The notes below the pieces were generated by a model. That model did no database searches. It was not told where the DNA came from and was given only the letters and a program-made list of their open reading frames with translations. DNA of 64,000 bases from an uncultured bacterium (GTDB taxonomy: Bacteria; Desulfobacterota_D; UBA1144; Nemesobacterales; UBA2774): positions 31,407 through 95,406 of the forward strand of contig CAVPJU010000008.1 in the NCBI GenBank assembly GCA_963705505.1, read 5' to 3'. Numbering within the stretch: position 1 is the stretch's first letter; every line of letters begins with the position of its first letter. A program made the position numbers and the translations under genes. Shown here one piece after another: positions 2,670-45,993 of this stretch.

Positions 2670-3713
2670 CTACTTCTCCTCGGTTTTCTCAGTCTTGACA
2701 ACCCCGGTTTTGGACAATATATCGCCCTTCAGCTTCTCAGCCATTTCCGGGTTGTCCTTGAGGAAAGCCCTTGCGTTCTCTCTTCCCTGTCCGAGCCTCT
2801 CTCCCCCGTACGAAAACCAGGTGCCGCTCTTCTCGACTATGTTCATCTTCGAACCCATGTCGACGAGCTCGCCCGTCTGGGAGATTCCGCTCCCGAACAT
2901 TATATCGAACTCCGCATCCCTGAACGGCGGGGACACCTTGTTCTTGACTACCTTTGCCCTGACCCTGTTCCCCGCGACCTCGTCCCCTTCCTTGATCGAG
3001 CCGATGCGCCTCACGTCTATCCTCACGGAGGAATAGAACCTGAGCGCCGTTCCGCCGCTCGTGGTCTCGGGGTTCATGTACGGGAGAGTCCCTATCTTCA
3101 TCCTTGTCTGGTTGACGAAAATAACCAGAGTATTCGACCTGCTTACAGTAGCCGTGATTTTCCTGAGCGCCTGGGACATGAGCCTCGCCTGAAGCCCTAC
3201 GTGCGCGTCCCCCATCTCGCCCTCTATCTCCGCCCTCGGCGTGAGCGCCGCGACGGAATCGAGCACTATGACGTCGACCGCGCCGCTCCTTACGAGCGTG
3301 TCCACTATTTCGAGCGCCTGCTCGCCGAAGTCCGGCTGCGATATGAGGAGGTCGTCAATTTTTACTCCCAGGTTCTGCGCGTAGTTGGGGTCGAGCGCGT
3401 GCTCGGCGTCGACGAATGCGGCTATTCCGCCTTTCTTATGGGCCTCCGCAATTACGTGCAGCGCGAGCGTCGTCTTACCCGAGGCTTCCGGTCCGAATAT
3501 CTCGATTATCCTTCCCCTGGGATATCCCCCCACTCCGAGCGCTATATCGAGCCCGAGCGAGCCCGATGATATTACGGAGAGCTGGGGAATGGGCGTCCCT
3601 GCGCCGAGCCTCATAATAGCTCCCTTTCCGAACTGCTTCTCTATGGAAGATATCGCGAGCTCTATTGTTTTTTCTTTGTCCGATGAATCCTGTGCAAATG
3701 ATTGTTTGGCCAT
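2670..3713 (-). CDS. recA: Recombinase RecA
   Basis: [35 protein letters not shown]. Confidence 0.99.
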
Positions 3714-3726
3714 AATAGCTCCTAAA

Positions 3727-4968
3727 TTATACGTTATTTAAAAAAATTTGCATAATAAAACTAAGCGCGTGAGAGGACGTGACTAACTTTATCTCCTCGC
3801 GCGTCCCGTGAAAGAGGAATTTCTCGGAGCGCGCCCCTTTTTTCTGCGAGTCGATACCAATGAAAACAGTGCCGACAGGCTTCTCGGGTGTGCCGCCGCT
3901 AGGCCCCGCAATGCCTGAAACGCCTATTCCTATATCAGAGCCCGCAAGCATCCTCACACCGCTAGCCATCGCTTCGACGACAGGGGCGCTCACGGCGCCA
4001 TGGGCCTTGATAATTTCCTCGGGCACCCCGAGTATCTTAACCTTTGCTTCGTTACTATACGAGACGACCCCTTCCAGGAAATAATCGGAGCTGCCCGGAA
4101 CGTTCGTTATCCTGTCGGCGATGAGGCCGCCGGTGCAGGACTCAGCCGTCGCGAGTGTCATTTCGTGCTTCCTCAGAAGCTTGCCCGCGACCTCTTCCAT
4201 GGTCTCCCCTTCGGTCGAGAATACATACGCGCTCAATCTCGATCGAACGTCCTTGACGAATTCCGCCATAAGCGCCTCCGCGACATCATTCGAGTCCCCG
4301 TATGCCGTGACACGCAGGTGCACCTCCGGGAAATGAGCCCTGTACCCGAGCTTGATCCCGTCCCTCTCGATACCTTCGAGCTTGATTGCGACCTCCGATT
4401 CGGGAAGGCCGAACGTCTTTATGAGCTTCGCCCGAAAAGGCTTCCTGCTGCTGTCCCGGCTCTCCAGCTCAGGGATCACGTACTCATCCATCATCGCCCT
4501 GAATTCCTTGGGCACTCCGGGGAGGAAATAAAATACAGCCCCTCCCTTTTCAATGCTGAACCCGGGCGCGGTCCCCCAGTGGTTTATCAATACTCGTGAT
4601 CCGCGCGGAAGAAAAGCCTGTTTCCTGTTCATGTCCGTAAGGACCCTGCCCCTCTTGCTTAGCCTTTCTTCGATTGACCTCACCGCCCGCATGTTCAGCT
4701 CGAGAGGGACACCGGAGAACTCCGCAGCGACCTCAGAAGTCAGATCGTCGGACGTGGGACCGAGACCGCCCGAAACTATAACTGCATCGGCTCTGCCCGA
4801 GGCGATCCCGAAAGCAGAAGAAATTCTAGCCTTATCGTCCCCGACCGTCGTGTGGAAGTCTATGCCGAAACCCCTGGACGATAGAACGTCCCCTGCCCAG
4901 GAGAAATTCCTGTCCTGAGTGAGACCGCTCATAAGCTCATCGCCCGTCGTTATGATTTCTATTCGCAT
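3727..4968 (-). CDS. cinA: Competence/damage-inducible protein CinA (MoCF domain + NMN deamidase)
   Basis: [39 protein letters not shown]; directly upstream of recA. Confidence 0.95.
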
Positions 4969-4983
4969 GTTTTAAAGGATATC

Positions 4984-5090
4984 GATTCCCGCTTTCGCGG
5001 GAATGACAAATTAAAAAACCTCGGAAACATTGCATTTAGTCCTTAAAGTTTGTTTATCTGTCATTCCCGAATGCCTGTATCGGGAATCCA
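4984..5090. repeat. Inverted pair of GTCA-tagged REP-like palindromes
   Basis: GATTCCCGCTTTCGCGGGAATGAC (4984-5007, minus copy) and GTCATTCCCGAATGCCTGTATCGGGAATCCA (5060-5090); solo copies at 16169, 31530, 45728. Confidence 0.9.
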
Positions 5091-5094
5091 TTCT

Positions 5095-5388
5095 TTACTT
5101 TATTAATTCCTCGTATAGATCATTCCAATCAGGATTAAACTGCTCTATAAGTTCAATCTTCCACTGCCTATTCCACTTCTTCAGCATTTTTTCACGTTCA
5201 ATAGCACTATAAATATCATTAGTATGTTCATAATACACGAGTTTTCGGACTTTATATTTTTTTGTAAATCCATCTAACATTTCACTTCGATGTTCGAAAA
5301 CCCTTCTTAGTAAGTCGTTAGTAACACCAATATACAGAGTCCCATTCTTCTTGCTTGCCAGGATATAAACATAATAATCCAAATTCAT
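5095..5388 (-). CDS. Stand-alone GIY-YIG nuclease (UPF0213-like)
   Basis: YYVYILASKKNGTLYIGVTNDLLRRVFEH...AIEREKMLKKWNRQWKIELIEQFNPDW; AT-rich compared with neighbours. Confidence 0.92.
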   Translation of the reverse strand: MNLDYYVYILASKKNGTLYIGVTNDLLRRVFEHRSEMLDGFTKKYKVRKLVYYEHTNDIYSAIEREKMLKKWNRQWKIELIEQFNPDWNDLYEELIK

Positions 5389-5485
5389 TACCAAACTTGA
5401 ATGCTTCTCCGTAAAAGCTGTGATCCGATTGAATAAGCTGACTTGTAATAGTATTGAGGTTGAACCAAATTAGAACGAAAATCAA

Positions 5486-5938
5486 CTACAGCAAAACCCT
5501 CGCAATAATCTGAAGCACGATGTTCGCGTACACGCCCGCCATCACATCGTCCATCACGACTCCGAGCCCGCCGTTTAAACTCTCGGCCTGCCTCGAAGGG
5601 GGCGGTTTCACTATATCAAACAGCCTGAAGAGGAAAAACCCGATTATCACGTTCGGGAGAGTGAGGGGGACGAGTATCATCGTAACGAGGTATCCGCAGA
5701 CCTCATCCGCGACTATCAGCCCCGGGTCTTTCTCCCCGAAGATGCCCTCCGCGACCCCTGCCGCCCAGACGGATAGAATTATGAATATCACGGTGAACGG
5801 GATGTAGAAATAATAAGGAAGAAACGAAACGATGTAGTAGAGCGGTACCGCGGCCAGGGTCCCCAGAGTCCCGGGCGCGTACGGGAAGTACCCGACGTAG
5901 AAAAAGGTTGCAATGAGCTTTGCAATCCTTATTTTCAC
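5486..5938 (-). CDS. pgpA: Phosphatidylglycerophosphatase A
   Basis: APGTLGT, DPGLIVADEV, FRLFDIVKP, GVVMDDVMAG. Confidence 0.95.
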   Translation of the reverse strand: MKIRIAKLIATFFYVGYFPYAPGTLGTLAAVPLYYIVSFLPYYFYIPFTVIFIILSVWAAGVAEGIFGEKDPGLIVADEVCGYLVTMILVPLTLPNVIIGFFLFRLFDIVKPPPSRQAESLNGGLGVVMDDVMAGVYANIVLQIIARVLL

Positions 5939-16097: not shown

Positions 16098-16128
16098 GCG
16101 GGACAGGAAATCCAACTCCATGTTTTAA

Positions 16129-16686
16129 GTCACCCTGAACTTGATTCAGGGTCTAATCATTTTCTTTTGTCATTCCCGAATGCCTTCATCGGGAATCCAG
16201 TGTTTATTCTTTTTATATAAAATTAAATCCACCCTACCCCTCCTTTACGAAAGGAAGGAAAACAAAACCCGTAGGAGCGGCATCTTGCCGCGACTCTCCC
16301 TTGCTCCATAATCCTCGATCTAACCGGCCTTGTCATGTCGAGCTGTAGCCGAGGAATCTCATTCTTTGTCATCCTGAGCCTAGTCGGAGGATGTCATTTC
16401 GACCATAGGTAGAAATCCGTATTTAAAGAAGTGAGAAACAAAAGATAGATTTCTCACATACGTTCGAAATGACGGGGTAGGTCTGGCCGAGGAGTGAAGC
16501 ACAACCCATATATGAATCCACATTGCGTACGTCCTTCCCGGCTACGGCCCGAGACTTCGCCGGGACGAGTCGCCGAGACGAGCGACAAGCTCAGGACGAA
16601 CGGGTTCGGTTGCGGTCTTGGATGGAGCAGAGAAGGAGTGACGCAATCGTATATGCGCGGAGATTCTCCGCCACACATTGTGTGCC
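16129..16686. repeat. Mosaic array of about 10 REP-like palindromes of several families
   Basis: GTCACCCTGAACTTGATTCAGGGTCT 16129; GTCATTCCCG..CGGGAATCCA 16169; ATCCACCCTACCCCTCCTTTACGAAAGG ~16227; GTAGGAGCGGCATCTTGCCGCGAC 16271; GTCATGTCGAG 16332; GTCATCCTGAG 16368; GTCATTTCGA 16393 paired with ..TCGAAATGAC 16473; CGACAAGCTCAGGACGAACGG 16583; CACACATTGTGTG to 16686. Confidence 0.88.
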
Positions 16687-23539: not shown

Positions 23540-23768
23540 GTCATTGCGAGCGCAGCGCGGCAATCTCACATTTAGCCCTCAATTCCCTCCTCAGAAAAAG
23601 AATCCGCCATCCGCCAACCTTCCCGAACATATACCCCGCGGAGCTTGGCGGATTGGCGGAAACTTCCATGAAAAAAAGATGAGATTCCGGGTCAAGCCCG
23701 GAATGACAAGGTAAGTTAGGCTGAGGGGTGAAACAGAAATCGTACATGAGCACACATTGTGTGCCCCC
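23540..23768. repeat. REP mosaic between converging/adjacent genes
   Basis: GTCATTGCGAGCGCAGCGCGGCAATCTC 23540; TCCGCCATCCGCCAA..TTGGCGGATTGGCGGA 23603-23660; GATTCCGGGTCAAGCCCGGAATGAC 23683; AAATCGTACATGAGCACACATTGTGTGCCCC 23737. Confidence 0.85.
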
Positions 23769-31005: not shown

Positions 31006-31443
31006 ATGAAATTAACGAGCCCCGATTTTGAAAACGAAGGCATGATACCGTCGGACCTGACGTGCGACGGCAGGGACGTATCACCCGAGCTTCTGATAAC
31101 GGGAGTCCCGGAAGGGACGAAATCCCTCGCGCTCATAATGGACGACCCCGACGCCCCGAGAGGGACTTTCGTTCACTGGGTCGTATGGAACATACCGGAT
31201 GATACGAAAAGGATAGAGCGCGGGAAGGAGCCGAAAGGCAATCAGGGCACGACAGGCTTCGGAGGGAGAGGATACGGAGGGCCCTGCCCCCCGTCGGGCA
31301 CGCACAGGTATTTTTTCAAGCTCTACGCGCTCGATGACGAGCTTCACCTGAAAGAAGGAGCAAGAAAAGAAGCGCTCGAGGAAGCAATGGACGCGCATAT
31401 AATCGAAAAAACCGAGCTAATGGGGAAGTACCGGAGGAAGTAA
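31006..31443 (+). CDS. YbhB/YbcL (PEBP) family protein
   Basis: DDPDAP..FVHW, YGGPCPP, HRYFF. Confidence 0.95.
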   Translation: MKLTSPDFENEGMIPSDLTCDGRDVSPELLITGVPEGTKSLALIMDDPDAPRGTFVHWVVWNIPDDTKRIERGKEPKGNQGTTGFGGRGYGGPCPPSGTHRYFFKLYALDDELHLKEGARKEALEEAMDAHIIEKTELMGKYRRK

Positions 31444-31529: not shown

Positions 31530-31555
31530 GTCATTCCCGAGAAATCGGGAATCCA
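31530..31555 (+). repeat. GTCA-tagged REP
   Basis: GTCATTCCCGAGAAATCGGGAATCCA, preceded by degenerate ..CTCGCGATGAC (to 31517). Confidence 0.85.
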
Positions 31556-43000: not shown

Positions 43001-43220
43001 GTCATTTCGAACCAGAGTGTGAGAAATCTATCTTTTGTGTTTCAATTTCTTAAAGACAGATTTCTCGTTTGCACTCGAAATGACAGCGTATGTTAGATTG
43101 ATAAAACGGCAAGGCGAGAACGAAGCTCCCCTTCCTCCTCTGCACCAGCCAACACACGAATCCAACCCGTTCGTCCCGAGCAGGAGCCTGTCCTGAGTTT
43201 ATCGAAGGATCGAAGGACGC
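43001..43220. repeat. REP doublet plus nested CGAAGG-type module
   Basis: GTCATTTCGAACCAGAGTGTGAGAAATCT 43001 and AGATTTCTCGTTTGCACTCGAAATGAC 43058; 43128-43181 is the reverse complement of 45907-45960. Confidence 0.88.
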
Positions 43221-45528: not shown

Positions 45529-45993
45529 CCCTTCGACTATGCTCAGGATAAACTCCGCGCGGCAAACAAGCCTTTTCTTTAACTTTCCTCTCCCCACTGT
45601 GGGAGAGAACTATTTCGACGAAGAGGAGAAATAGGATGCCATTACCATAACAGCACTTAAGCTAATTGAGCTCTGCCTCATTGTTCCCTAATCCAAATTA
45701 AGGTGAGGGGGGTACCTCAACCTTTTTGTCATTCCCGCGAAAGCGGGAATCCACTTCTTTATTGTTTCCCCATTTTATAAAAACCTAAATCCCCCTTTAA
45801 AAAGGGGGAAAACAATTTTTTAAGCCTGTAATTCCCTCCTTTTATAAAGGAGGGTTAGGGTGGATTTTTTCTTACTATTCGTGTGTAGCTTTCGACCCTT
45901 CGACAAGCTCAGGGTGAACGGGTTAAGATTCGTGTGTTGGCTGGTGCAGAGGAGGAAGGGGGAAATCGAATATGAGCACACATTGTGTGCCCC
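45529..45993. repeat. REP mosaic
   Basis: CCCTTCGACTATGCTCAGGATAAACT 45529; split CCTCTCCCCACTGTGGGAGAG..AGGTGAGGGG; GTCATTCCCGCGAAAGCGGGAATCCA 45728; CCCCCTTTAAAAAGGGGG; AATTCCCTCCTTT..GGAGGGTTAGGGTGGATT 45830; CCCTTCGACAAGCTCAGGGTGAACGG 45896; CACACATTGTGTGCCCC to 45993. Confidence 0.9.

Follow-up and report, generated by a model that had tools for sequence, protein, structure and literature searches.

The window analysed here is a 64,000-nucleotide stretch of DNA from an uncultured bacterium (GTDB lineage Desulfobacterota_D; UBA1144; Nemesobacterales; UBA2774; positions 31,407 to 95,406 of contig CAVPJU010000008.1, assembly GCA_963705505.1), and its feature of interest is a small nuclease gene, ssn, together with the tagged hairpins that lie beside it. 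The gene (5095..5388, minus strand) encodes a 97-aa single-domain GIY-YIG nuclease and is placed between the gene for PgpA (5486-5938) and those for CinA (3727-4968) and RecA (2670-3713); all four genes are on the minus strand and are probably transcribed together. Two starts are available in the open reading frame (ORF; 5095-5394), an ATG at 5388 that gives 97 aa and a TTG at 5394 that gives 99 aa. The protein matched the Pfam family GIY-YIG (PF01541) over residues 5-78 with an E value of 3.7e-15, and we detected no second domain in it, no other Pfam family scoring above its cut-off. The GC content of ssn is 0.32, compared with 0.534 for the whole window. A first-pass annotation of this DNA had pointed to an AT-rich GIY-YIG gene of about 97 aa within the pgpA-cinA-recA run, and the ORF, its composition and the Pfam match bear this out. 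Between the pgpA stop and the ssn start lies an AT-rich leader (5389..5485, minus strand), which has no 5' hairpin and is unlike the leader of the complete units described below. A scan of the gene strand from 4900 to 5600 for promoters and terminators found nothing, and no sigma-70-like site was seen in the leader.

Two hairpins on the 3' side of ssn form a head-to-head doublet. The one nearer to the gene (5060..5090, plus strand) is composed of a GTC tag, an 8-bp ATTCCCGA stem with a 9-nt loop and a CCA tail, and its tag is on the strand opposite ssn. From the ssn stop codon (5095-5097) it is 4 nt to the CCA tail of this hairpin and 7 nt to its stem; the stem-loop is also given as 11 nt past the stop. 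The second hairpin (4984..5007, minus strand) has a 4-nt GAAA loop and its tag on the gene strand, and lies 15 nt upstream of the cinA start codon. A spacer of 52 nt (5008..5059) separates the two, and the doublet region folded as single-stranded DNA (ssDNA) with -18.9 or -17.5 kcal/mol, depending on the strand (z about -2.8). Three solo hairpins of the same family, designated A, were found on the plus strand in intergenic DNA, in gaps between ORFs of at least 90 aa: one with a 9-nt loop at 16169..16199, one with a 4-nt GAAA loop on the ATTCCCGA stem at 31530..31555, and one at 45728..45754. As ssDNA they folded at -7.3 to -9.0 kcal/mol, with z from -3.4 to -3.9. The 24-mer at 4984-5007, read on the minus strand, recurs without change at 45728-45751, two loop bases distinguish the copy at 5060-5089 from that at 16169, and the 31530 copy is a 4-nt-loop relative of the other family-A hairpins; these relationships, and the distance of 4 nt from the stop to an inverted hairpin pair, are exactly those that had been reported in the first pass. 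The pattern ATTCCC-N(4-24)-GGGAAT occurred five times in the window (4985, 5063, 16172, 31533 and 45731), compared with 0.30 occurrences expected and a maximum of two in 100 shuffles.

Hairpins of this kind have been described in Neisseria. Chenal et al. (Nat Commun 2025, PMC11893778, cited throughout from the part of its text that was available) reported that SsnA of N. meningitidis, a 94-aa single-domain GIY-YIG protein (CDD cd10448, GIY-YIG_unchar_3), binds the 28-nt NTS, a tagged hairpin in which the old dRS3 core is contained. The hairpin was bound solely in ssDNA and on one strand, the cut fell just upstream of the hairpin, and the Neisseria enzyme had no activity on double-stranded DNA; the loss of ssnA increased transformation by NTS-bearing DNA about 5-fold (PMC11893778). 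With homologs defined by an E value below 1e-10, hairpins termed Ssn-related motifs (SRMs) flanked the gene on at least one side in 71% and on both sides in 42% of cases, and the association was reported across phyla (PMC11893778). Di Nocera, De Gregorio and Rocco (BMC Genomics 2013, PMC3733652, likewise cited from the part available) had classed the same repeats as CGTC-tagged repetitive extragenic palindromes (REPs), apparently without a dedicated transposase.

By its sequence the window protein belongs to the Ssn family. Homologs were detected in 12 of 41 genomes of the genus Neisseria, which were reached through loci carrying the exact NTS, at 48-58% identity (E 1e-26 to 1e-32). One Neisseria-genus homolog (locus L189) is a 94-aa ORF amid 11 NTS-type hairpins in 3.3 kb, and BLASTP aligned the window protein with it at 57% identity over 90 ungapped residues (E 1e-38); we do not equate this ORF with NMV_0044. 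All the residues that are invariant in 18 aligned homologs (Y8, Y19, G21, R29, H33, E54, R65, E66, K67 and N85) are present in the window protein, both motif tyrosines (GIY and YIG) among them, and the acidic residue that would bind the metal appears to be conserved as well. The genomes of N. lactamica and N. mucosa gave no Ssn match with the window protein, and of eight Neisseria loci that were fetched, three (L191-L193, 48-52% identity) had no GTCATTCCC-type hairpin. With the Pfam GIY-YIG family, the N. lactamica and N. mucosa genomes each had two matches; of the N. lactamica pair, the smaller is a YhbQ-like protein of 91 aa. Proteins of the UPF0213/YhbQ type (PDB 1ywl, EF2693) have the same fold family and the same size as the window protein; however, 1ywl, the sole PDB match, was marginal (E 0.0036), and the YhbQ-like N. 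lactamica protein had no BLASTP similarity to the window protein and no NTS nearby. The PADLOC library matched the window protein with 0 families. The nearest named homologs are in metagenome-assembled genomes (MAGs) labelled Candidatus Dadabacteria. The exact 28-nt NTS itself was found in at least 120 stretches, labelled as many phyla, among the matches listed Chloroflexota, Planctomycetota, Nitrospirota, Verrucomicrobiota, Gemmatimonadota and a candidate-phyla-radiation MAG.

The five window hairpins match 26, 25, 24, 14 and 14 of the 28 NTS positions (26 at 45728, 25 at 4984 and 24 at 31530), and those at 45728 and 4984 are of NTS type. The copy at 45728 also has the 8-bp stem starting with AT, the 4-nt loop and the CCA tail of the CGTC-1 class of REPs, with the first C of the tag replaced by T. 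Two hairpins lie within 110 nt of the ssn 3' end and none on the 5' side, which places the gene among the Ssn homologs flanked on one side only. No REP-associated tyrosine transposase (RAYT) accompanies them: the Y1_Tnp family PF01797 had 0 matches in the whole 2.88-Mb assembly (93.6% complete), which extends to the genome what had been remarked of the window in the first pass. A RAYT elsewhere in the genome, flanked by the same hairpins, had been named there as a finding that would refute the idea.

Ssn matches came from 18 of 31 related genomes and, across the phylum, from 38 of 120, and tagged hairpins accumulate next to these genes. Strict GTC-tagged hairpins occurred at 3.13/kb within 200 bp of ssn at 29 homolog loci, 16 of which had at least one (a thirtieth locus was dropped, since it overlapped another in the same tandem array), compared with 0.42/kb in the rest of the same loci and 0.07/kb, about 45-fold lower, in 30 cinA control loci. 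Enrichment within 200 bp of homologs had been proposed as a check in the first-pass annotation, where its lack was named as refuting the idea. At the ssn loci the tags usually point outward; they point inward in G024 and at the Neisseria locus, and there is therefore no strict rule of orientation.

The search string published for SRMs was replaced by seeds specific to each hairpin family, with the reversed sequence as control, because the string was not enriched and recovered only one window hairpin of the five. Four GTCA-tagged families (A, B, D and E) were distinguished in the genome, with 49, 62, 48 and 27 matches to 10-nt tag-plus-stem seeds, 186 in total, compared with 5, 7, 6 and 2 in the control. 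Eight seeds of the three families other than A fall in the window, and the first-pass annotation had therefore seen only a part of the hairpin complement. A generic census of hairpins with a perfect stem of at least 7 bp, which served only for finding families, listed 2430, with GTC|A the commonest flank (61), barely above others.

Different nuclease subfamilies are accompanied by different families of hairpins. Family A (ATTCCCG) is found with copies that share at least 69% identity with the window protein, and family B, with a CTGAA stem and 5-nt loops, with copies that share 49-53%. Only two Ssn-type genes were found in the window genome, and the second, a paralog on contig C9 with 46% identity to the window protein, has family D (TTTCGA-type) hairpins on either side. 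The ssn copy of G018 is flanked by family E (TTGCGA-type). Hairpin numbers follow the nuclease in part. The six genomes in which a copy reaches at least 69% identity to the window protein have 26-89 exact family-A hairpins, and 8 of the 13 genomes without any Ssn match have none; the reversed-pattern control gave zero in every genome.

We consider it very probable that the window gene is an Ssn-family nuclease and that the GTCA-tagged ATTCCCG stem-loops are its cognate SRMs, that is, NTS/dRS3-type hairpins or CGTC-tagged REPs. The suggestion in the first-pass annotation that the GIY-YIG protein is the cognate enzyme of the hairpins thus stands as regards their pairing with a nuclease and not with a RAYT, given the identity to an NTS-embedded Neisseria gene and the biochemistry of the family (PMC11893778), but not as regards its novelty. 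Within the literature searched, nothing relevant linked GIY-YIG proteins with REPs and Ssn terms occurred only in Chenal et al.; judged from its sequence, the nuclease-hairpin pairing described here is a new example of the published Ssn/NTS-SRM system and not a new kind of system.

Several observations weigh against this reading. The published SRM string fits only one of the five window copies, that at 45728, and in the genome it matched 19 times, compared with 8-23 times in 10 shuffles; the 6- and 9-nt-loop variants that dominate here are missed by it. Families B and E are numerous in the genome, yet no matching nuclease subfamily was found there. At 13 of the 29 homolog loci there was no strict tagged hairpin within 200 bp. 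Two genomes without an Ssn match nevertheless hold 9 and 19 family-A copies (G006 and G008), and six others (G001, G003, G004, G005, G007 and G009) hold 14-49 copies with only distant or stop-containing matches. Within the genus, therefore, where 9-49 copies occur without an intact close homolog, the number of hairpins does not track the intact family-A nuclease, and the relation between genome-wide hairpin counts and nuclease presence raised in the first pass holds between genomes with a close homolog and those without any match but not at this finer scale.

The chemistry of cleavage, the position of the cut and the biological role in this organism can be proposed by analogy. The Ssn protein would act as a GIY-YIG domain of about 95 aa without a separate DNA-binding domain. 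If it behaves as its Neisseria and Wolbachia homologs do, it would bind the hairpin solely when the DNA is single-stranded, and on the tagged strand only, and would then cut a few nucleotides upstream of the tag, sparing double-stranded DNA and RNA. Motif-bearing ssDNA, for example incoming transforming DNA, could be fragmented by such an activity. The window copy itself is probably an old, vertically held cassette, the 5' hairpin of which was lost or never present.

The history of the cassette was approached through the pgpA-cinA junction of relatives, where the two genes are adjacent in 28 of 30 loci and the other two loci stop at contig ends. Spacer lengths, obtained from 18 of the 30 loci, range from 17 to 76 bp in six genomes that are more distant and from 139 to 230 bp in five species of the genus that lack ssn, and the three spacers that hold ssn measure 522 bp in the window genome (G000), 596 bp in G002 and 430 bp in G018. 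The comparison of this junction, which the first-pass annotation had proposed as a way to find an empty site, yielded ssn-less spacers in relatives. The G002 spacer encodes a protein 78% identical to that of the window and has the same 3' doublet and the same altered cinA start; the counterpart of the 5060 hairpin lies 11-13 nt past the stop in G002 and in two copies of G012, a genome of a sister genus. Orthologs without hairpins had been named in the first pass as evidence against the pairing, and the sole relative with the orthologous gene, G002, carries the doublet. Divergence between G000 and G002 is similar for ssn (78% identity), cinA (79%) and pgpA (83%), and therefore fits vertical descent with losses.

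The same spacer has been occupied more than once. In G018, which is of the same family but another genus, inverted TTGCGA-type hairpins enclose a gene for a protein that shares 52% identity with that of the window. Upstream of its own gene, G002 has a remnant of a TTGCGA-type hairpin. Two ssn-less spacers of the genus still contain 15 nt of the G018-type 3' hairpin, unchanged in L004 and with one mismatch in L005; a further variant is found in L006, the 432-bp spacer of G005, which has no ssn. We infer that the pgpA-cinA spacer has long been a host of these elements and has been re-used. The CinA protein begins with MRIEI in the cassette-bearing G000 and G002 and with MCV(R/K)IE in the cassette-free species (window 4950-4970 compared with L002-L005 and L010); the cassette side therefore gives cinA a new start codon and 5' end. 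A link of ssn with cinA or recA as a general rule was considered and rejected: of about 73 ssn places in the 120 genomes, only those in G000, G002 and G018 are beside cinA.

The boundaries of the complete unit were defined in the sister genus, g4. Three copies in G012 are 86-88% identical over 413-422 bp, from the 5' hairpin to the 3' hairpin, and have unrelated flanks. The same hairpin-to-hairpin limits were observed at four places in G017, G138 and G140, and all g4 copies are 86-89% alike. The complete unit is therefore about 415 bp long and is bounded by two hairpins. Homology between the window copy and the complete G012 unit extends only from the coding start to the 3' hairpin, and the 5' end of a complete unit is therefore missing from the window copy. 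No target-site duplication was visible at three unit ends. A filled and an empty site could not be paired at nucleotide resolution, the G013 spacer being too diverged and the flanks in G017, G139 and G141 lying on other contigs or rearranged. At one G012 locus (L198, G012:C38:9800-16700) a 5.3-kb operon lies between two complete ssn units in convergent orientation and encodes a circularly permuted ATP-grasp protein, an Alpha-E protein, a proteasome-like subunit and a transglutaminase; the G017 contig that corresponds to it seems to stop at both of these units.

The hairpin-ssn-hairpin unit might in addition be an autonomous mobile element, with Ssn moving the unit and gene-less hairpins as in RAYT/REPIN or IS200/IS605 systems. 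Such an element would be compatible with an Ssn nuclease acting on its cognate hairpins; we regard it as conceivable, but rather unlikely. The dispersed g4 copies, which share homology exactly from hairpin to hairpin between unrelated flanks, favour it, as do the patchy distribution (38 of 120 genomes), the 70-80% identical homologs in MAGs labelled as other phyla compared with only 52% identity in the same spacer of a same-family genome, and the occurrence of up to six matches in G012 and of in-frame stops in several relatives' matches. Chenal et al. raised the same idea, although only as a hypothesis in their Discussion (PMC11893778). Against it stand the missing pair of filled and empty sites, since contigs break at repeats or the flanks are too diverged, the absence of target-site duplications, and the 86-89% likeness of the copies, which means that none is recent. 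GIY-YIG enzymes hydrolyse DNA, and we know of none that rejoins it. Divergence between the window copy and its G002 ortholog is close to that of the flanking genes, which fits vertical descent, and the tags show no replication-strand bias (64 seeds on the G-rich and 48 on the C-rich strand, no family significant, in a test of low power limited to contigs longer than 100 kb). The proposal in the first-pass annotation that the nuclease spreads the hairpins or lands on them found no support, the window copy having no 5' hairpin and the strand bias being absent. A fuller version of the idea, which we hold just as tentatively, is that the ~415-bp unit mobilises itself and would be among the smallest enzyme-encoding mobile units, that the gene-less hairpins of the four families are its non-autonomous offspring, each subfamily serving its own hairpin family, and that hairpin-laden spacers such as pgpA|cinA, which holds two different subfamily cassettes in two genera, are re-used landing pads.

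It is unlikely that the hairpins act mainly as RNA, as terminators, attenuators or stabilisers of mRNA like classical REPs, with the nuclease association being secondary. All five window copies lie outside ORFs of at least 90 aa, REPs are mostly downstream of coding regions, and transcription is plausible for many of them (PMC3733652), and hairpins persist in genomes without a nuclease match; however, the cassette showed no T-run terminator, a nuclease and not an RNA role accounts for the conserved unpaired GTC tag and for the orientation-specific flanks, and the hairpin families co-vary with the nuclease subfamilies. A free-standing double-strand homing endonuclease with the hairpin sequence as its homing site would account for the occupation of one spacer by two subfamilies, and the window protein gave weak matches to a PHROG family of GIY-YIG homing endonucleases (E 2.5e-5) and, under its cut-off, to TIGR01453. 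The protein, however, has only 97 aa and no DNA-binding domain, the Neisseria homolog is inactive on double-stranded DNA (PMC11893778), and since only 3 of the ~73 ssn places in the phylum adjoin cinA there is no conserved homing site, all of which makes such an enzyme very improbable. Least probable of all, to the point of being hardly credible, is a coincidence in which an acquired AT-rich gene and unrelated REP-like repeats came together in a tolerant spacer: the pgpA-cinA spacer of the genus does hold assorted hairpins even without ssn (L003 and L006), but the enrichment near ssn over control loci is about 45-fold, subfamilies are paired with hairpin families, and the association is published across phyla (PMC11893778).

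The Ssn-type nuclease and its hairpins in the window resemble the Neisseria Ssn/NTS system (SsnA, N. meningitidis) in having a single-domain GIY-YIG protein of about 95 aa, which is 57% identical to the NTS-embedded homolog of that genus, in the tag, stem and loop of the hairpins, in the clustering of hairpins beside the gene and their dispersal in intergenic DNA, and in the absence of a RAYT. They differ in that the host is an uncultured environmental lineage, in the 9-nt loop of the adjacent hairpin, which escapes the SRM string, in the absent 5' hairpin, and in the coexistence of no fewer than four families of hairpins with two ssn genes only. With the CGTC-1 (dRS3 type) REPs the hairpins share the unpaired GTC tag, the 8-bp stem beginning with AT, the CCA-like tail, loops of 4 or 5 nt in families A and B, head-to-head dimers and the lack of a dedicated transposase (PMC3733652); in contrast, the tag here is usually TGTC and not CGTC, many family-A copies have 6- or 9-nt loops, and the available text of the 2013 paper draws no link to a nuclease (PMC3733652). 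The arrangement is also like that of REP/REPIN-RAYT systems as far as these are described in the sources available, with short tagged hairpins often in inverted pairs, one or a few enzyme genes flanked by them, and mostly vertical inheritance, but the tag is GTC(A) and not GTAG, and the enzyme is a GIY-YIG hydrolase and not an HUH (Y1) tyrosine transposase, PF01797 not having been found in the genome.

These results add a non-proteobacterial environmental lineage to the Ssn/hairpin system and show that four families of tagged hairpins can occur in one small genome with only two nuclease genes. Compared with the available text of Chenal et al., they add the ~415-bp limits of the g4 unit, a copy without its 5' hairpin, and the occupation of the same spacer by a cassette of a different subfamily in another genus (PMC11893778). 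Homology bounded by the unit and one spacer re-used by two subfamilies bear on the question of cassette movement. For the ssDNA-cutting tools proposed in the 2025 paper (PMC11893778), the loci offer natural pairs of enzyme and site, including a site with a 9-nt loop.

Hairpins of the other families in the window were located by their seeds. A family-B GTCA-tagged hairpin with an 8-bp stem and a 5-nt loop (16129..16153, plus strand) is in the same spacer as the 16169 copy, a family-E hairpin (GTCATTGCGA type) was matched by its seed at 23540..23567 (plus strand), and family D is represented, as seeds only, by an inverted pair (GTCATTTCGA type) at 43001..43084 and by a second pair at 16393/16473. 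The spacer at 16098-16500 thus stacks hairpins of families A (16169), B (16129 and 16368) and D (the inverted pair) in a mosaic like that of bacterial interspersed mosaic elements (BIME). Short untagged palindromes, with runs of C and G around an A/T centre, adjoin tagged hairpins at 16225-16262 and 45780-45860, and similar palindromes were seen in spacers of relatives (L012).

A further set of tagged hairpins, family C (GGCGTC-tagged, with co-varying stems), was considered as a third SRM family and rejected; it was left out of all counts because it lies within the 3' coding ends of paralogous secreted-protein genes. These genes, for proteins of about 170 aa, form arrays on contigs C9 and C5 of the window genome (for example C9:24390-30500; L059). 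Their 3' coding ends share a hydrophobic tail and the GGCGTC-tagged hairpin, with a conserved 10-nt loop in addition to the co-varying stems, and pieces of 80-190 bp recur tens of times across the genus. The tail may correspond to a sorting signal of the IPTL-CTERM type, which it resembles.

The window genome has a third small GIY-YIG gene, at C10:149750-149992 (L197, 851-1093), which starts 188 nt past the tmRNA gene; its 80-aa product, which is of another subfamily, is 36% identical to the window protein, and we noted no tagged hairpins next to the gene. An extreme of clustering was seen in G023, a 1.4-Mb single-contig genome, in which 13 identical exact family-A hairpins all lie in one 2-kb array (G023:C1:1388700-1390700; L038/L051). 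The two ssn copies that this array surrounds gave the same score with the window protein (58% identity, E 4.1e-33).

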